From Candidatus Liptonbacteria bacterium (GTDB lineage: Bacteria > Patescibacteriota > Minisyncoccia > UBA6257 > JACOXY01), in assembly GCA_016182095.1 (NCBI GenBank), contig JACOXY010000012.1, forward strand, positions 25,864 through 89,863: 64,000 nucleotides of DNA, in the 5' to 3' direction. The first letter of the stretch is position 1; each line of letters begins with the position of its first letter. The notes beneath the pieces were generated by a model that was given only the letters and a program-made list of their open reading frames with translations, was not told where the DNA came from and ran no database searches. A program made the translations under genes and the position numbers. This document shows, in pieces, positions 2,589-48,268 of the stretch.

Positions 2589-3626
2589 TCAAACAAAAGT
2601 AGCGTCCTCTATCATTAAATCCAAAAGTTTCGTAAAACTTATTCCGCACGCCTTGGACGCCTGTGGCAACAAGCTTTGCTCCGTCATCCCGGGAATAGTA
2701 TTCACCTCAAGCACATAAATCTGTCCACCCGAACCGATTATCATATCGGTGCGGCTCACACCCCTTAGCCCAAGCGCTTTGTGCGCCCTAATCGCGGTAT
2801 CCTCAATTTTTTTGATTAAACGCAGCGGCATATTTTCCGGAGGCGTAACCTCCCTTGATTTACCGCTGTATTTTGCTTCAAAATCAAAAAAGTTTTTATT
2901 CAGTGGAATTATTTCTGTTGGCAAAAGAGCTTCAGCACATCCTTTTATATCCAATACTCCGCAAGTTACCTCCCTGCCTTTTATTGCCTTTTGCGCCAGA
3001 ACAGAACGGCTAACGCTGAAAGCTCCCTGAATCGCATTTTCAAGCGGAGCCAAATCGTTATTTTTGATTTCCAAAACAGAAACTCCCATGCTGGAGCCGC
3101 GATTAACCGGCTTTATTACGATGTGCTTTCCGAAAGTATTATAAATTGACTTTGAGACTTCTATCGGCTTTTTTATCCAATCTTTCCTTCTAATCTCTAA
3201 AAAATCCGGTGTCCCTAGCCCGGCCTCATCAAATTCCCGAGCCGCCAAAATTTTATTCATAGCGAGAGCCGATTGGAGAGAGCCGGAGCCGGTAAAAAAA
3301 ATACCGGCATTTTGAAGCACATGCTGGACAAAGCCATCCTCTCCATATTCTCCGTGCAAAGCCAAAAAGGCGGTATCCACTCCCCTTTTGCACAAAGTAA
3401 GGAGCGCTTCAGGCTCGGATAGAGGCGCTTCCCCTGGCCCATGGATAAGCCAAAAGCCCTTTCTATCTATCAAAATTGGCACCGCGTCATATTTTTTATA
3501 ATCCAAATGCTTTAAAACATTCAAGCCGCTTTGCACAGAAACTTCGTGTTCCGAAGAGGGGCCGCCCATCAAAACGGCGATTTTTTTTCGCGGAGCTAAC
3601 TGTTTTTTTGCCTCTCGTTTCCTCAT
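2589..3626 (-). CDS. ddl: D-alanine--D-alanine ligase
   Basis: ATP-grasp Ddl signatures (VLMGGPSSEHEVS..., EVNTIPGMT). Confidence 0.85.
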   Translation of the reverse strand: MRKREAKKQLAPRKKIAVLMGGPSSEHEVSVQSGLNVLKHLDYKKYDAVPILIDRKGFWLIHGPGEAPLSEPEALLTLCKRGVDTAFLALHGEYGEDGFVQHVLQNAGIFFTGSGSLQSALAMNKILAAREFDEAGLGTPDFLEIRRKDWIKKPIEVSKSIYNTFGKHIVIKPVNRGSSMGVSVLEIKNNDLAPLENAIQGAFSVSRSVLAQKAIKGREVTCGVLDIKGCAEALLPTEIIPLNKNFFDFEAKYSGKSREVTPPENMPLRLIKKIEDTAIRAHKALGLRGVSRTDMIIGSGGQIYVLEVNTIPGMTEQSLLPQASKACGISFTKLLDLMIEDATFV

Positions 3627-14717: not shown

Positions 14718-16013
14718 TTGAAAAACATAGTTATCCTTGGCGCCGGCTTCGGCGGCTTAAGAGTTGCGCGAGTACTCGCGAAGAAACTCACGAAGGCCGG
14801 GCTAAATGATAAATACCGGCTAATTTTGGTTGACAGAAACCATTACCATACCTTTACGCCGCTTTTGTATGAAGCCGCAACCACCTCAAAAGAAATAGCG
14901 GATATGGTGGAGCTGCGCACTATAACAACTTTTCAGATAAAACAAATTTTAAGCGGTCTCAAAGTTGATTTTATTAACGCCGAAGTAGAGAAAATTGATA
15001 TTATTACGGGAAAAATAAATTTAAAATCCAATAAAGGACAAGAGGTATTGGCTTTTGACCATCTAGTTATAGCTCTTGGCGCCGAAGTCAATACATTTAA
15101 CATTAAAGGCGTGACAGAGCATGCTTTTTATTTAAAAACCTTCTGGGATGCGATGCGGCTAAGAGATAAGATTATTGAAAACGTTGACGATGGCAAAAAG
15201 AATTTAAAAATAATTATCGGGGGGGGCGGTTCAACCGGAGTTGAATTAGCTGCCGAAATTCAGGGCTGGATTTGCGAGCTTAAAGAGGAGTACCCCAAAG
15301 TCAGGGAGTGTGAGGCACAAGTTTCTATTGTTGAGGGCGCGGGAAGTATTTTGAGTTCGCTCCATCAAAAAATCATAAAAAGGGTTGGGGAGCGGCTCGC
15401 GCACCTTGGGGTCAACACTATAACTAACGAATTCATCTCCGAGGTAGATGCAGACAAAATTTATCTGAAAAGCGAGCGAATTTTGCCTTGCGATATCTTT
15501 ATCTGGGCTGGCGGAATTAAAGCCCCAGCAATTTTAAATCAAGCCGAGCTGCAAAAATCAAAGAATAATGCCCTGCTGGTACAGAACAAAATGCAATGCC
15601 TGTCTGCCGCGCCAGATTTAAAGTTAGGCTCTGCAATTTATGGCCTGGGCGACAGTGTCTGCTTTATAAATCCCAAAAACGGAAAACCTATCCCCTGTGT
15701 CGCGCGACCAGCCATAATTCAGGGGGGAATTATAGCGCACAATATTTTTGAAGATATCATGGTACGGGAGGGTTTAAGCGTGAAAGCTTATCACAAAACT
15801 TTTGTGCCAAGGGAGTACCCGTATATAGTCCCTGCGGGCGGCAAATGGGCGGCGGCAAAAATAGGCCCATTTATTTTTTCCGGAATCTTAGGTTGGGTAT
15901 TAAAGGGATTAGTGGAACTTAACTATTTCTTATCAATATTGCCGGTTTGGTACGCGTTTAAAATATGGTTCAAGGGATTTTATATATTCATAAAAAACGA
16001 CCGGCTTGGCTAA
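14718..16013 (+). CDS. FAD-dependent pyridine nucleotide-disulfide oxidoreductase (NDH-2-like)
   Basis: N-terminal IVILGAGFGG Rossmann motif, second GGGSTGVE motif, C-terminal hydrophobic tail. Confidence 0.65.
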   Translation: MKNIVILGAGFGGLRVARVLAKKLTKAGLNDKYRLILVDRNHYHTFTPLLYEAATTSKEIADMVELRTITTFQIKQILSGLKVDFINAEVEKIDIITGKINLKSNKGQEVLAFDHLVIALGAEVNTFNIKGVTEHAFYLKTFWDAMRLRDKIIENVDDGKKNLKIIIGGGGSTGVELAAEIQGWICELKEEYPKVRECEAQVSIVEGAGSILSSLHQKIIKRVGERLAHLGVNTITNEFISEVDADKIYLKSERILPCDIFIWAGGIKAPAILNQAELQKSKNNALLVQNKMQCLSAAPDLKLGSAIYGLGDSVCFINPKNGKPIPCVARPAIIQGGIIAHNIFEDIMVREGLSVKAYHKTFVPREYPYIVPAGGKWAAAKIGPFIFSGILGWVLKGLVELNYFLSILPVWYAFKIWFKGFYIFIKNDRLG

Positions 16014-16876: not shown

Positions 16877-17590
16877 CTAAACAAGATTAAAATACCGCTT
16901 AAGCTCTTGGTCGTTGTTTATATTTTTGGCAGTGATTAGATGCACATATGGCTCAATATTATAAAATCCGCAAAGAAAGTCTACTTCTTTCTTACAGTTA
17001 GTTGGAACAACAAAAACGCTTTTTTGAAGTTTATACGCGCCCATAAGGCATAATTTTTCTCTAAATGACTCTCTAACCTGCTTATGCTCTTCTGGAATAT
17101 CAAAAATTATTAGACGCCAAAAACCGTCCTTCATCCCCGGCGAAAAGCGCATTTTTCCAAAATGCTCTTGAAGTATCTTTGAAAGGCCTCGCTCGGTTAT
17201 TTTCACTTCATATGTTTTTGGAGCTTTCTTCTTTACATCAATATACCCAAGACGCTTGTAATGGCGCCGCGTGACATTAAAATCGTTTTTATTATAAAAC
17301 TGCCTGTGCCGCGTCAGCTTCCCGTAAGCGCCGAGTACATTTGGCGCTACCACCGCAACAGTAACCATCCCGCCGATGGCCAAGAGACCAAGTAGGGCGC
17401 TCCCGATAAAAATTCCACCTTCTTTAGCATAACGCACAACCATTTCTTTTTTGGCTGCCTTTTGAGTCGCTTCCCAGTCAGATTTCATATCTTCAAGTAA
17501 AACATTTTTATATTTTAATAGCGACTTTTCAAGTCGTCTCTTTCGTTTCTTTTCATTATTATTTTTAGATTCATTTTGGATAGTTTTCAT
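16877..17590 (-). CDS. membrane-anchored PaaX-like protein (winged helix + PaaX_C-like domain)
   Basis: N-terminal basic region plus one TM helix. WRLIIFDIPEEHKQVRESFREKLCLMGAYKLQKSVFVVP resembles the PaaX segment WDGKWLLLLSEG...KKQLIWQGFGALAPSLMASP. It is also Cas2-like by eye. Confidence 0.5.
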   Translation of the reverse strand: MKTIQNESKNNNEKKRKRRLEKSLLKYKNVLLEDMKSDWEATQKAAKKEMVVRYAKEGGIFIGSALLGLLAIGGMVTVAVVAPNVLGAYGKLTRHRQFYNKNDFNVTRRHYKRLGYIDVKKKAPKTYEVKITERGLSKILQEHFGKMRFSPGMKDGFWRLIIFDIPEEHKQVRESFREKLCLMGAYKLQKSVFVVPTNCKKEVDFLCGFYNIEPYVHLITAKNINNDQELKRYFNLV

Positions 17591-17666
17591 TGTGGTTTTT
17601 GTTTAAAGCCTGGAGACATTAGATAAATGTTGGATATTACATTGTGACAACAATAAAAGTAAAAAC

Positions 17667-17702
17667 TGTACATATTAACTGCTATAGCAGTTAATATGTA
17701 CA
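17667..17702. terminator. perfect 36-bp palindrome (bidirectional terminator)
   Basis: tgtacatattaactgctatagcagttaatatgtaca, flanked by T runs on both strands; lies between two minus-strand genes. Confidence 0.6.
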
Positions 17703-17812
17703 AAATATTTTTTGCTTCTTGCATAACAAGAACTCAAAGGTTCTGAAAAATTGTGCCGATAATTGTTTCAATATAGTTAGCTCTTATCATGCGCTGATTA
17801 TTACCTCGCTAA

Positions 17813-20173
17813 TTAGTCTCTCAATCTATCATAAACCCTTTGCTCTACCTCCTCTCTTGGGCGACCATATTTTAAGGAGTTCATTTCTTTGAGCTTAGCG
17901 GCATACTCCGGATTATGGATATACGTCAAAGGAATTTTTATGTTAAACGGCCTTGAAGTCCCACCGCTTATTAAAAGCCGCGTGTAGGCGTTTAAGTTAT
18001 CAATGTTTATCAAATCATTCTGGTTAAAAGTGGGCTCAAAAAGCTTGAGCAATGTTTCGGCGTCAGGCGGACCAACGCGGAAAGCAATAGATGTCCCAAC
18101 GTTGCCGAAAACGGCATCACGAATTTTCTCCGTAAGCTGGGCGACATATTGATGCGCCACAATTAAGTTTAGGCGGTATTTTCGCGCCTCGGCTAAGATA
18201 GTCGCGATTGAATCCGTCGTAAAATTCTGAAATTCGTCTATATACATGTAAAAATCGCGGCGCGCGTTCTCACCAGTCGTGTCGGCGCGTGAAAAAGCCG
18301 CCATCTGCAATTTGCCGGTTATTATCATGCCCAAAAGATTTGAGCCCAACTCCCCAATTTTCCCTTTAGAAAGATTCACTAGCAATATCTTCCCTTCATC
18401 CATCACGTCCCTAAACTTAAACACTGATTTCGGTTGGGCTATAATGGGCCGCATATAATCATTGGCGATAAAACTGTTGAACTTTGAAGTAAAGTATGGC
18501 GCCGTGTTTTCTAATGAGTACTCCCCTTTTACTTTAGACGCTTCTTTTTCCCAAAAATCTTTCACTAATGGATTTTTGCATTTCGCGACTAGGCGATTTC
18601 TAAAATCGCTATCGGTAAACACTCGCGGCACATCAACTAAGGTTGCGCCTTCCTCCGGGTCGTCCATTAAAAGAAAGAGGGCGTTTGAAGCGTAGCGCAA
18701 AAACATCGGACCACCGACTAATTTCATGTCAAAAAGCCGATCAAAAATAAGCATGAGTTCGTCCACTATAAAAGATCTTTGCTCCGGTTTTGCGGGATCA
18801 TATTCCAGCATATTCAGCCCCAATGGCCTTGCTAAATCTCCGGGATCAAAAATAATCAGGTCGTCCACGCGCTTTTCCGGAATTGCCTGGAGAAGATTTT
18901 CTATTAAATCGCCATTGGGGTCCAAGACCGCCACGCCTTTTCCGTCCTTAATATCCTTCATCGCCATATTGTAAATTATTGTGGATTTTCCGGTGCCAGT
19001 CTGGCCAACAATATAAACATGGCGGCGGCGATCCTCGTCTAATATAAAAACCGGCTTTGATTCCCCGCGAAAACTCGTCTCGCCTATAAATATGCCGCTG
19101 GTTGGAAGGTTAGTGGGCGGCGCCGCTTCTTTGGCCTTGAGCCATTTAATGCGGGGTATATTGGTGCTTCCGGTCGGCAGATGGAAAAAGCTCGCCATCT
19201 CTTCGCTATTCACGATGATTGCCTGACTGTCGTGAAATTCCCTAAAGGCAAATTGATAGGCAAGCTTGTCCACATTTCTTGGTTTAACAATTTTAAAATT
19301 ATTCCTGAAAGGCGCGCTAAATTGCGAAAATCCGGTCATGAGTCCGTCAACAATCGCATCAGCGTGCATTTTATTAGGACTTGAAGCTATAAGCCGCACA
19401 TTAACCAGGAAAAGCGGCTTGGCAATCTTCGCCTCAAAAGCTTTTACAGCGGATTCGTCTATGATTTTGGATTTTGGTTCTTTTTCATTCTTTTTCTGCG
19501 CGAATGATTTGGCTATGTCTCCAAAAGTTGGCACAGTTTTTAAAATATCTTTTAGCGGAGTTCCCTCCTTTAATCTGTTTAGGGCGTTTTGAATAGATTT
19601 TTTAGCGCTCTTCGGAGCCGGCTTAACCAATACTTGAATAGCGGCACCCTCGCCAATTTCATCCAACCTGGAAAGTCCGCCGACTATTTGGCTAAAAGAG
19701 TCCGCCTCCAGTTCCGCGTAAGTTCTAATGGGAAGAGCGTAGTTTTCCTTTTGGGCTACGTAAAGCGCGGCAACCGTGCCATGAGAATTAAAAATATTGT
19801 AATCGGAAGCTTTTTTAACTTGCGCGTCCGGCCAAATGCTCTGAATTTGCTTTGCCACCGACTCCGCTATATCTCTGTGAACTCCTATATAAAAGTGAAT
19901 ATCTTCGCCAATGTGATGCACCGCCGCCTCTAAAATAAATGGGGTTTTAAGGGAAGAGAGCGCGGAGTAAAGTTGTTCCGAGGCATTTATTTCTTCCTTG
20001 ATATTTTTTGGTTCGCCTTCTTTTTTAGAGCTTCGCGCAAGCTGTACTGAAAAAAGTTCCAGTTCCAAAGAGTGTATCAGCCGCTTATGGCGAGATTTTT
20101 TATATAGAAAATAGGCGCCCCATCCCAAAAGAGCCAAGCCAGCTATTATCAATACCAAGCGAATGTTGCCCAT
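17813..20173 (-). CDS. VirD4/TraG/TraD-like (or FtsK/HerA-like) P-loop ATPase with an N-terminal TM helix
   Basis: N-terminal TM helix; Walker A GQTGTGKST; Walker B-like IDEFQNF; large N-terminal extracytoplasmic-like domain. The family is common in CPR as T4SS-like coupling proteins. Confidence 0.6.
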   Translation of the reverse strand: MGNIRLVLIIAGLALLGWGAYFLYKKSRHKRLIHSLELELFSVQLARSSKKEGEPKNIKEEINASEQLYSALSSLKTPFILEAAVHHIGEDIHFYIGVHRDIAESVAKQIQSIWPDAQVKKASDYNIFNSHGTVAALYVAQKENYALPIRTYAELEADSFSQIVGGLSRLDEIGEGAAIQVLVKPAPKSAKKSIQNALNRLKEGTPLKDILKTVPTFGDIAKSFAQKKNEKEPKSKIIDESAVKAFEAKIAKPLFLVNVRLIASSPNKMHADAIVDGLMTGFSQFSAPFRNNFKIVKPRNVDKLAYQFAFREFHDSQAIIVNSEEMASFFHLPTGSTNIPRIKWLKAKEAAPPTNLPTSGIFIGETSFRGESKPVFILDEDRRRHVYIVGQTGTGKSTIIYNMAMKDIKDGKGVAVLDPNGDLIENLLQAIPEKRVDDLIIFDPGDLARPLGLNMLEYDPAKPEQRSFIVDELMLIFDRLFDMKLVGGPMFLRYASNALFLLMDDPEEGATLVDVPRVFTDSDFRNRLVAKCKNPLVKDFWEKEASKVKGEYSLENTAPYFTSKFNSFIANDYMRPIIAQPKSVFKFRDVMDEGKILLVNLSKGKIGELGSNLLGMIITGKLQMAAFSRADTTGENARRDFYMYIDEFQNFTTDSIATILAEARKYRLNLIVAHQYVAQLTEKIRDAVFGNVGTSIAFRVGPPDAETLLKLFEPTFNQNDLINIDNLNAYTRLLISGGTSRPFNIKIPLTYIHNPEYAAKLKEMNSLKYGRPREEVEQRVYDRLRD

Positions 20174-32835: not shown

Positions 32836-33288
32836 ATGAGAATAATAGTTATTGCGGTGATTTTTATGATTACTCCGGCTTCTTTAACATTCGCGCAAAC
32901 GGATGATGGTATTGCTACGCCCACATTATCCGGCACGGCAAGAAATGACGCCTCATCTTTTGCGACGAGTTCCGATAACACCATAGAAAATGGCGGCACG
33001 GCTACAACTCCACGCGCGACAACATCTGAAGCGCCCATCAAGCCAATTGAAACAATTGAAAAACCAACCTCTTCGTCGCCGCCTACGCCCCCGGTTATTG
33101 TAAATCAGACGCCCACAGAAATCATTAGCCTGGCACAAAATACTAATCCAGTTGAAAGCGAAAGTATAAATCCCTTGCTTTGGGCGATGCTCGCGTCCCT
33201 CACCATACTCCCCTTCGGATATCTGGTAACACAATCATTAAAAAATAAAAAACTAAAAAAGACAAAAAAGGTGAGCGGGGGTGCTTGA
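32836..33288 (+). CDS. secreted Thr/Pro-rich protein with a C-terminal TM anchor and basic tail
   Basis: Signal peptide; low-complexity T/P/S-rich region; C-terminal LTILPFGYLV hydrophobic stretch followed by KNKKLKKTKK. Confidence 0.5.
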   Translation: MRIIVIAVIFMITPASLTFAQTDDGIATPTLSGTARNDASSFATSSDNTIENGGTATTPRATTSEAPIKPIETIEKPTSSSPPTPPVIVNQTPTEIISLAQNTNPVESESINPLLWAMLASLTILPFGYLVTQSLKNKKLKKTKKVSGGA

Positions 33289-34070
33289 ATATCAAAAAAT
33301 TAATGGATGAAAAACTAAATGAATTAACTGACTTAAAAGGAAAACTTCAAGAAATGGTGAAGGGAATGGTCAGAGAAAAAATAAGAGAATCGGCGCGAGA
33401 AACATCCGCAGGAAAAATTCTTGCCTTGATTGAAACCGCGGAAAAAGAATATGGGCGGCTAAAAAAACTCTTTGAAAAGTGCGTGCTGGAGCCAAAGACA
33501 AGCAAACAAGTAATAATAGTTCATGGATGCACCGGAGCCGACGAAAAATCAATGAACCCGCGAACAAGAACCTACAACAGGCATTGGATGCCATGGCTCA
33601 AGAAGGAACTCACGACAAAAGGCATAGATGCGGAAACTCCCCTAATGCCAAATCCCTGGGCGCCGGTTTATGAAAAATATAAAGAAGAACTTGAGAAGTA
33701 TGCGGTTGGAGAAAACACTATTTTAGTCGGGCATAGTTGCGGCTGCGCCTTTTTAGTTCGCTGGCTCGGAGAATCAAAAACAAAAATTAATAAGCTTATA
33801 TTGGTAGCTCCCTGGAAAATTCCGTACGGAAGCAATCCTGTTATAAGCAGATTTTATGAATACCCGATAGATGAGAAAATCAAGTTTAGAGTAAAGGAAG
33901 TAGTGATGTTTACGTCAGACGACGAGGAAGAAGACGGCAAAAAAAGTTTAAAAATTTTTCACGATGCGCTTGGGGGCAAGATTTTAGACCTCAAAGGACA
34001 TGGACATTATACATTTGGCGATATGGGGACCGAAGAATTTCCGGAATTACTGGAAGTGATAATGAGATAA
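33285..34070 (+). CDS. alpha/beta hydrolase (RBBP9/YdeN-like serine hydrolase)
   Basis: GHSCG nucleophile elbow; C-terminal GHGHY. Confidence 0.55.
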   Translation: MNIKKLMDEKLNELTDLKGKLQEMVKGMVREKIRESARETSAGKILALIETAEKEYGRLKKLFEKCVLEPKTSKQVIIVHGCTGADEKSMNPRTRTYNRHWMPWLKKELTTKGIDAETPLMPNPWAPVYEKYKEELEKYAVGENTILVGHSCGCAFLVRWLGESKTKINKLILVAPWKIPYGSNPVISRFYEYPIDEKIKFRVKEVVMFTSDDEEEDGKKSLKIFHDALGGKILDLKGHGHYTFGDMGTEEFPELLEVIMR

Positions 34071-34881: not shown

Positions 34882-34990
34882 TATTTTATCATTCTATATC
34901 ACTCTATAATTTTGATCAAAGCCAAATATGATCGCCAAGGTGCCCAGCTTAAAAGGTAATTTGTTATACTTAAATAAAATGTTGATGGGT

Positions 34991-36628
34991 ATGAAAAAGG
35001 CTTCTAGAAAAAATCGGGGTTTTACTCTTTTAGAATTGCTGCTTGCGTTTGCTGTTATAAGCGCATTATTTGTTATTATTGCGATTAGTTTGACATTTGC
35101 TAATGCAAAAGCAAGAAACGCGCGCCGGCTAAGCGACGCCAATCAAATTACAAGCGCCATTCAACTTTATCGCCATGAACATTCCGGGGATCCTCCCGGA
35201 GAAGATGGCGTAGAATATACAAACGGCGATCCAAATTGGATCCCCAATCTCGTCCCACAGTATATGAGAGTCGTGCCTTCCGACCCCATAGATAAAGATC
35301 AATATAAATATCACTATATTCGCAACGGCGTCAATTATGAAGTCTCGGCATTCATGGAGGCGCGCGGCAATGATGCTTCTTGCGGTGATGGCGGTCCTGG
35401 CGGTTGCGATTATTATGAAAATACTTCCGGAGAATTTTTAACTATTTATAATCCCGGCGCTTCGGGCTGGAATTTTACCTCCGGTTCAACAACCCCGCCG
35501 TTAGCAAGTAATACCTGCGCTACATTCACAGAATCGCAAAAATATTACTTTGATTTATGCGCAACAGAGGGTTATGACAATGTTTGCCTCGATAAAGCCA
35601 CAGGCGAGCATCAGGGGTGCACAAGAAATACCTACAACGACTGTACGCTATATAACACTAATAAAGACAATAACTTGCTTTGTGCAGTTTCCGGTATTTC
35701 AACTACCACTTCGGCCTTGAGCGTTCTTGCTCCATCAAACAACATAATCTGGGTTCGGGGCATGAAAGGACAAGTATTCTGGAACGAGAATACCACGCAT
35801 CCCGTCACGATCAATCTGTTAAAAGCTGGCTCGTTTTACCGCACGCTCGCCTCCAATGCGCCGGCAGTTAAATTTTCCGGATACAACTTCCAAAATCTTT
35901 ATCCAGATGCGTATTATGCGGCAGTTTCTCTCCCTGTTGATGTTTCTTTGGGCGGTGATTATCAGATAGAAGTTCTTGATTCATCCGATTCATCCATAAA
36001 AGGCATCAGTAACGGAATGTTTGCTGTTGTTCCGTTCTATGATCCGGTGACCGTACAGGGCAAATTTATTGACGCTTTTACTTTACAGCCGATAGCAGAC
36101 ACTCAAATTGTTAGCGGTTCATCGTCAGTTTATACAAATTCAGATGGCGCATTTTCTCTGTCCGCTACAACTAATGATATTTCAGAGAATGCATCGAAGT
36201 CATTGTTCTCAAGTTGGCCAGCATGCCATATTTCTCAAGGGGCGGGGTTCTTCAATTATTACACTGCGATTTACGCCTCGTTTAATCCATTTGATTTAAT
36301 GCGCAACGGAACCAATGTGCCAATCTACAGCTCAAGTATAGATTTGGGGGACATTAGGTTATGGCCAGCCGCCAATCTCATCATACATTCTGATATTCCC
36401 GTGCAATATAAGATAGGATTCCCTGATGAGCAGACATCGTTTGGCAACACAAGCTTCAATACTACGCAGAGCGGATCTAATGTATTGCCCTTAGATTATG
36501 ATATCCAAGTAAAACTTACGGATCAGTTAGGAAATGTTTATGCCGCACCAACAATCAGATTGCCGGATAATTGGGGCTGTAATTCAAAAACCTTGAATTT
36601 TTCCGTAGGAAATTTTGTGTGGCGGTAA
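34991..36628 (+). CDS. type IV pilin-like protein with a large C-terminal domain
   Basis: Prepilin N-terminal cleavage/methylation motif GFTLLELLLAFAVISALFVI after a short basic leader; start trimmed to MKKASRK. Confidence 0.7.
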   Translation: MKKASRKNRGFTLLELLLAFAVISALFVIIAISLTFANAKARNARRLSDANQITSAIQLYRHEHSGDPPGEDGVEYTNGDPNWIPNLVPQYMRVVPSDPIDKDQYKYHYIRNGVNYEVSAFMEARGNDASCGDGGPGGCDYYENTSGEFLTIYNPGASGWNFTSGSTTPPLASNTCATFTESQKYYFDLCATEGYDNVCLDKATGEHQGCTRNTYNDCTLYNTNKDNNLLCAVSGISTTTSALSVLAPSNNIIWVRGMKGQVFWNENTTHPVTINLLKAGSFYRTLASNAPAVKFSGYNFQNLYPDAYYAAVSLPVDVSLGGDYQIEVLDSSDSSIKGISNGMFAVVPFYDPVTVQGKFIDAFTLQPIADTQIVSGSSSVYTNSDGAFSLSATTNDISENASKSLFSSWPACHISQGAGFFNYYTAIYASFNPFDLMRNGTNVPIYSSSIDLGDIRLWPAANLIIHSDIPVQYKIGFPDEQTSFGNTSFNTTQSGSNVLPLDYDIQVKLTDQLGNVYAAPTIRLPDNWGCNSKTLNFSVGNFVWR

Positions 36629-36640
36629 TTTGTACACAAT

Positions 36641-37508
36641 ATGCCAAAATTTAAATATATTGTAATTGTTTTAGCCATTTTGCTCGCAACTGCTTTGATC
36701 GCGGTTGTTTTGCCAAAACTATCTTTGCGCAATCAATATGGGTCAATGAATCAAGCCGATGAAGCCGTGAGAAATTTAAAAGTAATGCTTAACCGGGGCG
36801 TCACGCAAGTTCAGTATTTGATTAACGAAACCAATTTTTTATTGGCCAATCTTGCTCGTTCAAAAATTATAGCTGGCAAAGACGCTAAGGCCTGCGGTAG
36901 TCTTTTGGCGTCATATCTAAAGCGAGACGAAAAAAAATTCACAAATTTTGTGGTTGCGGATTTATGGGGTGACATTTGGTGTTCCAGTTCTCCCATAAAT
37001 CCGCTTGAAGACCGAATCAATGTCGCGGACAGGGCATATTTTCAAAGAGTAATGAGAGAAGGGGGGGGGGGGGCGATTTTCTGCCGGCGATTCTCAAGTT
37101 GGAAGAATTAGCGGCAAAGTTATTATTGTCTTCGCCCATCCCCTCATGAATCCAGAAAATAATAAAATAGATGGTTTGGTTGCCGTAGGCCTTGATTTAA
37201 GCTGGCTTGGAAAGTGGGTTCAGAATCTTAACATGTCAAGAGATTACACGTTTACTTTGTTGGATTCGGAGGGTTTTGTTTTGGCTCGCTATCCAAACGA
37301 CGGATTCGCTGCTGAAAAAATAAACGAGTCTGAAATTTATGAAAACATCATGATGGCAAAAAGCGCGAATAAAAACGAGGCGATTTTTGAAGCCAGTGGG
37401 CTTAATGGCCAAAAGCGCCTATTTGCATTCGCCGACATTCCCAATCCCCAAGCCCCACGAACACTTTTAGATTTATATTTAGTGGTTGGCCAAGCAATAG
37501 AGGAGTAA
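36641..37508 (+). pseudogene. Cache-like extracytoplasmic sensor domain protein, split by a frameshift at a G13 homopolymer
   Basis: ORFs 36641..37111 and 37146..37508 are contiguous Cache-like sequence (ADRAYFQRVMREGG | RFSAGDSQVGRISGKVIIVFAHPLMNPENNKIDGLVAVGLDLSWL). G12 instead of G13 at 37061-37073 would fuse them. Confidence 0.55.
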
Positions 37509-37612
37509 GAAAAGTATCTAGCCTAACCAAGACCTTAATCGCTGATATCTCGCGCATATTGACAGATTGGAACACCAACTAGAAGAGAACTGCCGATAAG
37601 CGCAAGCCCCTA

Positions 37613-38368
37613 TTATTTAGTGCTGTATCTGACTTTATGATAAGCCCGATGCAAAAAGTAAAATCCAAAAACCAAAAATAATATACTCATTGTTTGTGTG
37701 ACAAAAAAGAACTTTGAGCCGGCAATAACCGTGTACCAAGCTTGCGGCGGATACTTTAAAACATTTACAATAATGAAAACATTGCGCGCGAGCCCTAAAA
37801 CAGATTCTCCGATAATCCCCAAAGATCCAAAAAACAGAAGGGTCTTTTTAATGTCTTTTTGAAAGAACAAACGAAAAACTGTTAAGACAATCAAAATGCG
37901 CATGGGAATATAAAATACGATATTACCGCCAAGCGGGAGTATATAGGTCTGGATGATACCCTTATGCCATATAAACTGATACGCAAAAAATGCCGTCGCG
38001 GCCACAAACCAAATAGCAAGAACAGTTTTTTTGCTCTTGCTTATTTTAAATCCGGACATTCTAACAACGCCCAGATAAATAAACATTAGCGCAAGAAATG
38101 TTATCGGGAATGTAAGAGCAAAAAACAAATTAAAATCAGTAACGATAATAGCTCTGCCAAGACCGATTAAAATGGCCGGCACCTGAAACCAATAGAACAG
38201 AAAGAGCGACAGCGACCAATGTATATAAGCTCGGGCATGGCGCTCGTGTCTATGTCGCCACCACCAAACCAAAAAATAAATACTGCTAATAACCCCTAAA
38301 GCAAGCGCGAGAAACGGCAGTAGAATGAAAACAATTTCCATGTAATGAAAAAAGGCGTCGCCCATCAA
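37613..38368 (-). CDS. polytopic membrane protein (about 7 TM), hypothetical
   Basis: Multiple hydrophobic helices. Confidence 0.45.
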   Translation of the reverse strand: MMGDAFFHYMEIVFILLPFLALALGVISSIYFLVWWWRHRHERHARAYIHWSLSLFLFYWFQVPAILIGLGRAIIVTDFNLFFALTFPITFLALMFIYLGVVRMSGFKISKSKKTVLAIWFVAATAFFAYQFIWHKGIIQTYILPLGGNIVFYIPMRILIVLTVFRLFFQKDIKKTLLFFGSLGIIGESVLGLARNVFIIVNVLKYPPQAWYTVIAGSKFFFVTQTMSILFLVFGFYFLHRAYHKVRYSTK

Positions 38369-38388: not shown

Positions 38389-40794
38389 TTATAACACTTT
38401 AACCGGGTCCCATCCCTTTTTCTTTAGCAAAAGAGAATTCAACACAACCGAAACGGAACTTGTCGCCATGGCGACGGACGCGTAAATTGGATTTAAAAGC
38501 AGACCAAAAAACGGATAGAGCGCCCCCATCGCTACCGGAATTAAAATCACATTATAGGCAAATGCCCAGAAAAGATTCTGCCTGATTGTCCTCATGGTTT
38601 TTTTAGAGAGAATTATGGCGGAAACTACCGACCGCAAGTCTTTATTTATAAGAGTAATGTCCGCCGCCTCTATTGCCACGTCAGTGCCAGTGCCCATAGC
38701 AATACCCACGTCAGCGGCAGCCAAGGCCGGCGCGTCATTTATGCCGTCGCCAACCATAGCCACGACCTTACCATCTAATTGAATTTTTCTCACCTCCGCC
38801 TCTTTTTGGTCAGGAAGGACTTCGGCGAGGACTCTTTGTATGCCGGCTTTTTTTGCGATTGCTTTGGCTGTGCGCTCATTGTCGCCAGTAATCATTACCG
38901 TTTCTACTCCAAGATTCGTGAGCGCTTGAACAGCCAAACCAGCGGTATCTTTAATTGTGTCCGCGACAGCAATAGCGCCGATCACTTCTTTGCTCAGCGC
39001 CAAAAGCATTGCCGTTTTCCCCTCGCCCTGTAGTTCGTGAATTTTGTCGCGCGCTTCATTAGTTACCGCCACTTCGTGAGACTCCATAAGCCGAAAATTT
39101 CCCAAAAGCACAAGGTGCTCGGTTACTTTCCCGCTCAAACCGAACCCTGGTTCAGCTTTAAATTCTTTAATTTCCGGCTTTTCCGCATTCAACTCTCCCG
39201 CTTCTTTCTGAATTGCCGCATCAATTGGATGCGAGGACTGCCTACCCAAGAGAGCCGCGAGCCCCACCATAAATCCCTTGACGCCATGTCCTGCGATAGC
39301 TTCAAATTTTGAAACATTAAGAAGCGGGACTTTGTCTTGGGATGCCTTCTCCACAATGGTTTTGGCAAGCGGATGCTCGGAGAGATTTTCAATTGAGGCG
39401 GCAATTTGCAAGATATCCGCCTGCACCTCCGGCTCTTTGCTCTCAATAAAAGAGATTACATCGGTAACTTCCGGCTCACCGCGGGTCAAGGTCCCGGTCT
39501 TATCAAAAATCACCACGTTCACTTTATGGGCTGTTTCCAAACTTTCGGCATCCTTGATTAAAATGCCGTGCTCCGCGCCTTTGCCGGTGCCAACCATTAT
39601 TGCCGTTGGAGTCGCAAGCCCCATGGCGCAAGGACAGGCAATTATAAGCACGGCGACAGTATTCAACATCGCGAAAAGAAATGCCGGCTCCGGACCAAAA
39701 TCATACCAAACGGCAAATGTGATAAAGCCAAGCATTATTACAACCGGCACAAAATATGAAGACACCAAATCCGCGAGCCGTTGAATCGGCGCCTTGCTCC
39801 CCTGCGCTTCCTGAACTAATTTTATAATTTGAGCGAGCATGGTGTCCGAGCCAACTTTCTCTGCCCTAAAAATAAAGGTTCCGGTTTTATTAATAGTCGC
39901 CCCGATTACCGTATCCCCGCTTGCCTTAAGAACCGGAATGCTTTCTCCGGTAACCATGGATTCGTCAACCGCGGAACTGCCGTCAATAATTACTCCGTCA
40001 ACGGGAATTTTCTCTCCGGGGCGGACGCGGACAATGTCGCCAATTTCTACCTCGCTTATGGAAATATCAATTTCTTTCCCGTCACGCACAACTCGCGCTG
40101 TTTTTGCCTGCAAGCCAATAAGCTTTTTAATTGCTTCCGAGGTTCCGGCTTTGGCTTTCGCCTCAAAATACCGCCCCAAAAGGATAAGACCTATGATAAT
40201 AGTCGCGACATCAAAATAAGGGGCCGCCTCCACTCCAATTCGCTCTATTATACCCGGAAACACTGTCACAAAAGCCGAGTAACCGAAAGCAACCGTGGTG
40301 CCAATAGCAACTAACGTATCCATATTGGCGGTCCTATGCTTTAGCGCGGAGATTGACGCCTTATAAAAACCGAGGCCAGCCCAAAATTGGACGGGCGCGG
40401 CCAAGATAAGTTCCGTCCAAAAGTTTTTAAGTAATTCCGGAGCAGAATTCATTAGCCCAGGGAAACTGCCCCACAAAATAAGACCGCCTAAAAATAAACT
40501 GGCCACAACCTTGACTCTAAGAGCTTTGAGCTCTCTGTGTTTTTCTTTTTGCTCCTCATCTTCGGTTTGAATTTCTTCGCTTATCAGGGCCGCATAACCG
40601 ACATTAGCGACCGCGGAAAGCAAGTGCTCGTCCTTAACTTGCTCCGGATCATAAGTTATCGTCGCCGTTTCATTGGCCAAATTCACGCCGGCGCCCTCTA
40701 TCCCCTGAACTTTTTTAAGCGCTTGCTCGATAGTCAAAACACACGAGGCGCAATGCATGCCTTTAATTCTGAATTGTTTAGTTGTGGTAGCCAT
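38389..40794 (-). CDS. copA: copper-translocating P1B-type ATPase
   Basis: HMA GMHCASC; CPC motif; DKTGTLT; GDGINDAP. Confidence 0.9.
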
Positions 40795-42693: not shown

Positions 42694-42727
42694 AACATTC
42701 TAACATTCTTGAGAATGTTAGAATGTT
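42694..42727. promoter_or_regulatory. 34-bp palindrome (15-bp perfect arms, 4-bp spacer) downstream of the ArsR-like gene
   Basis: aacattctaacattc-ttga-gaatgttagaatgtt. Confidence 0.6.
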
Positions 42728-43024: not shown

Positions 43025-43058
43025 AGTTTTCCAAAACATTCTAACATTCTCAAGAATG
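43025..43058. promoter_or_regulatory. 34-bp palindrome upstream of the ArsR-like gene (putative operator)
   Basis: aacattctaacattc-tcaa-gaatgttagaatgtt; same arms as 42694-42727 with the spacer inverted. Confidence 0.6.
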
Positions 43059-43186
43059 TTAGAATGTTTTGGAATGGGTAATGAGTGGATAAGAAACCTT
43101 TTGCATTAAACTATGTCAGTAAATGGTTAATACAAGAATGTCGTAATGTTGTGGGCAAGATTTTAAGGTAAAAATCGCTCCGATGT

Positions 43187-47462: not shown

Positions 47463-47475
47463 ATCCGTTTAATAT

Positions 47476-47612
47476 AAACCCGCAATGCTTCCTACTCCAA
47501 ATAGGCCCCGCGTAGTCTGCCACGATTCGCGGGCTTTTTTATATCTAAATAAAACCTGTAATGTTTTTTACTCCAAACCGGCCCCGCGTAATCAACGCCG
47601 ATTCGCGGGGAT
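47476..47612. repeat. tandem duplication (two ~77-bp units) of the mpg 3' coding end plus its terminator
   Basis: Both units carry ..tactccaaa..ggccccgcgta.tc..c..cgattcgcggg + T run. They encode VDYAGPVWSKKHYRF and ADYAGPIWSRKHCGF respectively. Confidence 0.65.
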
Positions 47613-48268
47613 TTTTGAATTTTAAACTTTGCCCGAAGTACATCCTGCGTAGTTCGACTGCGCTCACCATAAACTTTGCCGAAGGATTTCCTTTCTTCCA
47701 CCCACAGCTCGCTTTTTTTATCTGCCTTTTTTCCATTAAACCTTTTGTCAATTTTAAAAAATTTGGTAAGTTTCCCCGGGCCCGACATCCGAAGTCCCAA
47801 ATATTGAGGTTCCCTGCTTTTTGACTTCGGATGTCGCCAAGTTGAGCTTTGCTGGCCAATTTTAGGAGATCCGACCTCTGAAACACACCCATTGGGGAAG
47901 ACTGGGGGCGGGTGGTTTCGGGTTTCCGAGGTCGGATCTCGTGGGCGATCAGATATCAAGACGCCACGGATTAAAACCGCCGCCGGATAATCTTTGGGGC
48001 CCGTCACCACATTTAGCATCCAGTGCATGCCATAGGTTAAATAAACATACCACACTCCCGCCTCGCCAAACATCACCGCGTTCCGCGCCGTTTTCCCGCG
48101 ATGCGCGTGAGACGCCTTGTCCTTAAACCCGTCGTATGCTTCAACTTCAGTTATCATCGCCGCAATTTCCTTACCCTTTATCCTGCGCACCAAAAACTTG
48201 CCTAAAAGATTTCTGGCAACAACAACGGTGGACTTTTGAAAATATGGCTTTTTAAGAATTTTTTTCAT
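47492..48268 (-). CDS. mpg: DNA-3-methyladenine glycosylase (Mpg/AAG family) with an in-frame ~60-aa GC-rich insertion
   Basis: N-terminal ARNLLGKFLV...EVEAYDG...VWYVYLTYGMHWMLNVV and C-terminal GPGKL...PRIGVDYAGPVWS. The insert between them corresponds to the hairpin-rich DNA at about 47760-47945. Confidence 0.65.
   Translation of the reverse strand: MKKILKKPYFQKSTVVVARNLLGKFLVRRIKGKEIAAMITEVEAYDGFKDKASHAHRGKTARNAVMFGEAGVWYVYLTYGMHWMLNVVTGPKDYPAAVLIRGVLISDRPRDPTSETRNHPPPVFPNGCVSEVGSPKIGQQSSTWRHPKSKSREPQYLGLRMSGPGKLTKFFKIDKRFNGKKADKKSELWVEERKSFGKVYGERSRTTQDVLRAKFKIQKSPRIGVDYAGPVWSKKHYRFYLDIKKPANRGRLRGAYLE

Follow-up and report, generated by a model that had tools for sequence, protein, structure and literature searches.

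A poly-G tract in a Cache-domain gene of a groundwater CPR bacterium as a candidate slipped-strand contingency locus

Typical phase-variable genes encode surface proteins and lie beside pilus genes. In Campylobacter jejuni, in which functional mismatch repair is absent, tracts of G8-11 undergo 1e-4 to 1.6e-3 switches per division and settle at a G9-G10 equilibrium (PMC8355987). A variable G run also controls the expression of a ligand-sensing receptor in Helicobacter pylori, which resembles the locus described below, whereas at tlpB, the chemoreceptor gene concerned, the repeat resides in the mRNA leader, is paired with by the small RNA RepG and confers graded expression rather than a frameshift within a coding sequence (PMC8295292). 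Outside the classical mucosal pathogens, reversible frameshifts at coding homopolymers have likewise been recognised from population sequence data in glpK and other genes of Mycobacterium tuberculosis; these tracts, however, are reported to be short (about C7), and both ON and OFF states were observed and experimentally tested (PMC10334774; bioRxiv 10.1101/717272).

The tract described here lies in a Candidatus Liptonbacteria genome and thus in a member of the CPR/Patescibacteria. A lifestyle of attachment to host cells is assumed for this group. Full-text searches for phase variation in CPR, Patescibacteria, Saccharibacteria or Parcubacteria found no report, and the literature on the mismatch-repair status of CPR yielded nothing usable. 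The metagenome-assembled genome (MAG) carrying the locus was most likely recovered in a study of groundwater (He et al. 2021, PMC7906910; BioProject PRJNA640378), in which HiSeq 4000 or NovaSeq 6000 reads were assembled with MEGAHIT (PMC7906910). A stretch of 64 kb from this genome is referred to as the window.

A homopolymer that sets the reading frame of a Cache gene

The longest homopolymer of the window is a run of 13 G at 37061..37073 (forward strand), exactly where a previous reading of the sequence alone had placed it. The next longest homopolymer measures 8 nt, and the remaining G runs do not exceed 6 nt, except for a single G8; under an order-0 model, the expected number of G or C runs of at least 13 nt in the window is 3e-4. 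The tract is flanked by …GTAATGAGAGAA on the left and ATTTTCTGCCGG on the right, and it is frame-setting. The two ORFs reported earlier are present with the same limits, ORF1 at 36641..37111 (forward strand, 156 aa) and ORF2 at 37146..37508 (forward strand, 120 aa), and shortening the run to G12 in silico merges them into one ORF of 288 aa, as had been proposed. The whole Cache gene occupies 868 bp (36641..37508, forward strand) and encodes 288 aa with G12, the run then spanning codons 141-144 and encoding Gly141-144. Across the break the repaired frame reads ...ADRAYFQRVMREGGGGRFSAGDSQVGRISGKVIIVFAHPLMNPENNKIDGLVAVGLDL..., which bears out the continuity of the motif claimed before, and the product-spanning junction of the full-length form is ...REGGGGRFSAGD....

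The effect of tract length on the product can be read directly from the sequence. In silico, G9, G12 and G15 give a single ORF of 287, 288 and 289 aa, respectively; G10, G13 or G16 lead to a stop after 155-157 aa (156 aa in the case of G13), and G11 or G14 to a stop after 168-169 aa. Two features that define contingency loci are found at this level, namely a slippage-prone repeat inside an ORF and a length-dependent switch between full-length and truncated products.

Both fragments are annotated as hypothetical protein in GenBank, ORF1 as MBI2035587.1 (HYT12_02800) and ORF2 as MBI2035588.1 (HYT12_02805), on a contig that measures 110,954 bp. ORF1, the OFF product, consists of a membrane anchor and the first half of the distal Cache module, followed by 12 out-of-frame residues, and ORF2 comprises the rest of the Cache domain from an internal ATG and lacks both a signal and an anchor. 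With Pfam dCache_1 (PF02743), the repaired protein aligns over positions 17-239 of the 240-position profile (E 5.5e-20, 72.4 bits, cut-off 45), and a gene call homologous to ORF2 on a contig of the same population (L001, see below) also matches dCache_1. In the AlphaFold2 model of the repaired protein, built with 24 homologues and reaching a pLDDT of 89.7, a long N-terminal helix that starts as the membrane anchor is predicted to be followed by two PAS-like modules. A Foldseek comparison of the model with solved dCache domains retrieved 3lif (E 2.7e-13, TM 0.84), with further matches to KinD (4jgo), DctB (3by9), TlpA (6e09) and PctA (5t65). Gly141-144 are placed by the model in a surface loop between helix 132-139 and strand 147-153.

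The last strand of the model covers residues 278-285, and the protein ends three residues on, at residue 288; downstream of the gene, all frames are closed by stop codons, and a convergent gene follows (37613-38368, reverse strand). Since the repaired protein contains neither a second transmembrane helix nor a cytoplasmic output domain, it is described as a membrane-anchored Cache ectodomain and not as a complete signalling receptor. The sequence-only reading had spoken of a Cache-like extracytoplasmic sensor; one complete dCache_1 domain is indeed there, but the term sensor holds in part only, as the second membrane helix and the output domain are missing.

A long homopolymer raises the question of a sequencing or assembly miscall, by which the tract would be real but its length misread, the gene being constitutively intact (for instance as G12 + CG) and the differences described below amounting to homopolymer noise. 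The sequence-only reading had itself attached this caveat to its proposal. Among the 218 homopolymers of at least 6 nt in the window, however, the G13 tract is the only one that joins two halves of one recognised domain by a 1-nt change, and no other homopolymer of the window splits a recognised domain, which argues against a miscall. Nine other cases were flagged in this survey, and those that were checked sit where adjacent ORFs meet; across the window, homopolymers show no general tendency to go with frameshifts.

Besides the tract, the sole long G run is the G8 at 15219-15226, which encodes Gly residues in frame within the GxGxxG motif (IIIGGGGSTG) of a gene for an NDH-2-like oxidoreductase (14718-16013); this gene is unsplit. 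Three A6 runs are found at 33239-33288, where a 150-aa ORF (32836-33288) and a Ser_hydrolase gene (33285-34070) overlap by 4 nt. The latter is called as 255 or 261 aa by different gene callers on identical DNA, and the two ORFs could be fused by a 1-nt change, with no sign of their being one gene. No further simple-sequence repeats of the contingency type were found in the 64-kb window. Among repeats of other kinds, a 76-bp unit is present in 1.9 copies at 47471-47616, overlapping the end of a methylpurine glycosylase gene, and an identical 8+8 palindrome (AACATTCT..AGAATGTT) occurs at 42694-42727 and 43035-43068, the two copies being 340 bp apart.

States of the tract across assemblies of the same population

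The MAG window was compared with per-run Logan assemblies (k=31) that share 99.6-100% identity with it over the locus. In the window, the site reads G13 + CG + ATTTTC, corresponding to a spacer of 15 nt. The contigs L001 (SRR12113384) and L002 (SRR12113385) span the site, and both read G13 + ATTTTC with a spacer of 13 nt; the CG dinucleotide at 37074..37075 (forward strand), which is present in the window as well as in contigs L007 and L008, is missing from them. Other contigs begin or end at the tract. In run SRR12113424, one contig ends within the tract after 19 G (L005) and another starts with 16 G + CG (L007), and in run SRR12113430 one contig ends after 14 G (L012) and another starts with G + CG (L008). 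Four runs reach the site, and in two of them the contigs fail to cross the tract. At least three states of the site are thereby observed among the assemblies, with sequencing noise being possible for the counts taken at contig ends.

With the CG dinucleotide, the in-frame lengths are G12 or G15, and without it they are G11 or G14. The consensus is OFF in each assembly that crosses the site: frame repair demands the loss of 1 nt from the window allele and the gain of 1 nt by the CG-less allele of L001 and L002, which runs into the other wrong frame and encodes a product of 168 aa (P0151). Contig breaks also occur elsewhere in these assemblies. Logan contigs end at 38574-38577 (three runs) and at 38758 (two runs), in the 3' part of a copper-ATPase gene where no homopolymer is found and where strain variation or sequence in common with other genomes may be the cause. 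As the contigs also break at such non-repeat sites, a contig break at the tract is by itself weak evidence.

The differing length and frame of the tract between public assemblies suggest an ON/OFF slippage switch. A comparison with related genomes had been recommended by the sequence-only reading; the differing states between assemblies of the same population favour instability of the tract, but an in-frame version did not emerge from this comparison. ON forms were absent from all assemblies and public proteins searched, and an exact look-up of 20 candidate proteins, comprising the in-frame ON form and alternative lengths, among ~15 billion public proteins found none of them.

Several circumstances would allow a miscall to account for these differences. 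All length data come from Illumina assemblies, and some runs of the source study are NovaSeq runs. On this platform, G is the no-signal base. The depth of the MAG is inferred to be probably ~15x, and the k=31 graph may have produced the contig ends with 14, 16 and 19 G as noisy dead ends. In addition, Illumina indel errors climb with homopolymer length, above all beyond 14 nt (PMC8808543). On the other hand, the identical G13-ATTTTC allele was assembled from two independent runs, and the spanning alleles are off-frame in opposite directions, so that a one-directional systematic length error cannot put both in frame; an in-frame truth would demand errors of opposite sign for the window and the CG-less alleles. 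The loss of CG is moreover linked to five SNPs, making six differences from the window in all, which marks the CG-less form as a real haplotype rather than noise. Weighing both sides, a miscall is considered quite unlikely.

Polymorphism, selection and the nearest homologues

The Cache gene stands out by its polymorphism. The 6.7 kb surveyed contain 14 SNPs, 12 of them within the 868-bp gene and 2 in the ~5.8 kb of flanks, an excess of ~40-fold over the flanks; the clustering has a P of 1.6e-9 per SNP and of 1.3e-3 if the SNPs are counted as five events. The window and L001 differ by six SNPs and the indel, all of which lie in 37073-37161, and the other ~6 kb are identical. This first patch extends 3' of the tract (37093..37161, forward strand), with sites at 37093, 37105, 37115, 37137, 37160 and 37161 that translate in the repaired frame, in this order, to S151Y, R155K, a synonymous change, H166Y, a synonymous change and N174D. 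Contigs L007 and L008 have just the 37093 change of this patch. A second patch of six sites in 81 bp (37430..37510, forward strand) is carried by another contig of SRR12113385 (L009) and consists of four synonymous changes, one R273Q and one change 3' of the stop codon; the contigs of this run break exactly at the patch. Contig L005 adds differences at 36874 and 35848.

At position 37093, the window has C (Ser151) and all Logan contigs covering the site have A (Tyr151). Residue 151 is aromatic in most aligned homologues (GDYQVGR motif), and at this site the MAG carries a minority variant or else a consensus error.

Seven of the 12 SNPs are synonymous when read in the repaired frame; the two alternative frames give 2 and 3. 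Under a null that keeps the mix of transitions and transversions, 3.7 synonymous changes are expected on average and P(>=7) is 0.04; dN/dS is ~0.2, with the synonymous bias resting on 12 linked SNPs. The five non-synonymous changes (S151Y, R155K, H166Y, N174D and R273Q) are conservative. Ten of the 12 SNPs in the gene lie 3' of the tract, where the OFF gene is untranslated, and all alleles are free of further stop codons and frameshifts. Since the tract is present in all alleles, selection acted while the tract was there, and judged from this pattern of substitutions the gene appears to be under selection as a full-length protein while tract-bearing. A gene that is otherwise intact and selected in its ON frame is what a contingency locus calls for.

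These data bear on the possibility of a young pseudogene, in which a slip in an expanded G run inactivated the gene, which would now be decaying with a tract that is unstable but serves no switch. In favour of decay, all assemblies that cross the site are out of frame and the ON form is absent from public proteins; one allele lacks CG and has K at the nearly invariant R155; and length-changing poly-G tracts are known from C. jejuni pseudogenes such as cj0046 (PMC8355987). Decay is opposed by the synonymous bias of the repaired frame, which also holds 3' of the tract, by the lack of other stops or frameshifts, and by the polymorphism excess, which neutral decay leaves unexplained among near-identical strains. 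Moreover, a single slip would bring either spanning allele to an in-frame length. The pseudogene is thus regarded as unlikely, though it retains some weight.

The purifying-selection signal 3' of the tract also fits ongoing translation of the downstream part by expression-level rescue, in which the DNA would be stably off-frame and slippage of RNA polymerase or of the ribosome by +1/-1 would yield some full-length protein. Such rescue has precedents in the poly(A) tracts of insect endosymbionts, in dnaX and in IS elements. At the present locus, 13 identical bases allow perfect re-pairing of the transcript or of tRNA-Gly, and by the sequence the repaired frame is reached from the window allele with a +1 shift and from the CG-less allele with a -1 shift. 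However, the need for opposite shifts in the two alleles makes a directional programmed signal unlikely, and the known cases of transcriptional slippage in bacteria chiefly concern A/T runs. The length of the DNA itself, besides, varies between assemblies, which a switch at the DNA level already covers. Expression-level rescue is very improbable as the explanation of the locus, and it can coexist with a contingency locus. Programmed recoding in the strict sense, which presupposes fixed off-frame DNA and a single direction of shift, was rejected, as the spacer differs between the alleles and the shifts they need are of opposite sign.

The short divergent patches (~7% over 60-90 bp) look like recombination mosaics, also beyond the edge of the tract, when judged from their sequence. 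No paralogue that might serve as a donor for gene conversion was found within the window. A diversity-generating retroelement, raised by the position of a SNP patch beside a G/C-only stretch, was rejected: a template repeat is absent, there is no second copy of 37000-37299 in the window, no RVT_1-type reverse transcriptase occurs among the 32 ORFs scanned, the sole match resembling a reverse transcriptase being RNase H, and the substitutions near the tract are not adenine-specific.

When 1.8 billion representative proteins were searched exhaustively with phmmer, the only close matches were the two GenBank fragments themselves, and a word-indexed protein search with the repaired protein gave no match. 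The next phmmer match is a protein from a Niyogibacteria MAG of the same sequencing project (261/267 aa, 40% identity); the remaining matches show ~35% identity or below and are mostly long kinases or cyclases. The Niyogibacteria homologue is intact and likewise comprises an anchor and a Cache domain only, which indicates that the short output-less form is a real gene type. At the position of the tract it reads CTT GGC GGT AAA TTC, and the homopolymer is absent. The loop from FQR to F-x-G comprises 9 residues (VMREGGGGR) in the repaired protein versus 5-6 in 24 of 24 aligned homologues. As it is three residues longer than in all of these, the tract is taken as a lineage-specific expansion that added three Gly residues, and going by the alignment it probably sits where insertions are tolerated.

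An intact ortholog devoid of any homopolymer had been named by the sequence-only reading as the mark of a simple pseudogene. The nearest homologue is indeed intact and tract-free; at 40% identity, however, it is too distant to count as an ortholog. Scans of GTDB representative genomes revealed no relative, and scans of JGI metagenome contigs with the left flank plus Gs gave no match; among the collections searched, the population is seen only in the NCBI MAG and the Logan assemblies. On the Niyogibacteria contig (JACOYI010000014.1), a G7 at 2732-2738 is located 16 nt 5' of the start of the Cache homologue (2754-3557) and may serve in ribosome binding or form a short variable tract; the genes downstream of the homologue encode small proteins, secreted or membrane-bound, and a Laminin_G_3 protein of 945 aa.

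The proposed switch and its known counterparts

Upstream of the Cache gene, at 34928..36628 on the same strand (forward), lies the gene of a type-IV-pilin-like protein of 566 aa with an N-terminal methylation motif and a weak T2SS-G match. Its stop is separated by 12 nt from the start of the Cache gene, the terminator scan found no convincing terminator between them, and the two genes are probably co-transcribed. Neither scan, for promoters or for terminators, was informative, counts of promoter-like sequences lying near the shuffled expectation. The genes around the Cache locus are ordinary chromosomal genes. Elsewhere in the window, a 786-aa VirD4/TrwB-like type IV coupling protein adjoins a 237-aa protein with a PaaX central Cas2-like domain (16877-20173, reverse strand), and both may belong to a type IV secretion or conjugation-like machinery of CPR.

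In the mechanism proposed here, the G tract would act as a hypermutable simple-sequence repeat within the coding region for a dCache_1 protein that is anchored in the membrane and exposed on the surface, and replicative strand slippage would gain or lose G residues. A G run plus CG of 14 nt (or 11 or 17 nt) would then give rise to the full 288-aa protein, and other tract lengths would cause a stop at residue 156 or 168 with loss of the ectodomain. The population would accordingly represent a mix of cells with and without the surface protein, as in classical phase variation. The mechanism supposes that the length differences are biological, that ON cells exist and that switching is reversible and frequent; in addition, the Cache protein may work with its pilin-like neighbour in host or ligand contact or sensing.

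The probability that the G13 tract is a slipped-strand contingency locus of a surface Cache protein, with the consensus being OFF, is put at about 0.5. Of the phase variation proposed by the sequence-only reading, the tract, its effect on the frame and the differing states between assemblies stand, but an in-frame version was not seen. Against a switch it also counts that there is a single long tract in 64 kb, that it is located in the middle of the gene and that at least 13 G exceed the Campylobacter equilibrium.

A more far-reaching version of the contingency locus is tentative and probably goes too far: the locus would be the first of its kind in CPR, with an ultra-small episymbiont stochastically switching a pilus-linked, output-less Cache receptor, the gene of which would also be diversified by mosaic patches (~7%, 60-90 bp) in the ligand-binding module, one patch bordering immediately on the tract. 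Host or ligand recognition would then be subject to phase variation together with allelic variation of the antigenic type, possibly brought about by mutagenesis associated with the tract or by gene conversion.

If the tract does function as a contingency locus, a strategy of animal pathogens would also be at work in free-living groundwater symbionts, and one surface protein would be singled out as being under fluctuating selection. In practical terms, two hypothetical proteins of GenBank are a single gene, and the locus is concrete and can be tested on existing reads.

The mechanism as such is well known, and what is new is the CPR/Patescibacteria lineage and the class of gene, an output-less Cache gene beside a pilin-like gene. 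In function, the tract most closely resembles the poly-G/C loci of C. jejuni, Helicobacter, Neisseria and Haemophilus, in that an intragenic G/C homopolymer sets the frame of an otherwise intact gene with a surface product, and in that tract length, going by the assemblies, appears to vary between closely related populations. It differs from them in its host, an uncultured groundwater CPR bacterium instead of an animal pathogen, in the length of the tract, which is typically G9-G10 in C. jejuni (PMC8355987) and ranges here from 13 to at least 19 G, and in the output-less Cache domain, which is an unusual gene class for such loci. With the dCache_1 sensors (PF02743), the protein shares the sequence profile and the predicted fold of a long N-terminal helix and two PAS-like modules; known members, however, serve as input modules of kinases, chemoreceptors or cyclases and continue into a second transmembrane helix and an output domain, whereas the present protein and its Niyogibacteria homologue end after the Cache domain.
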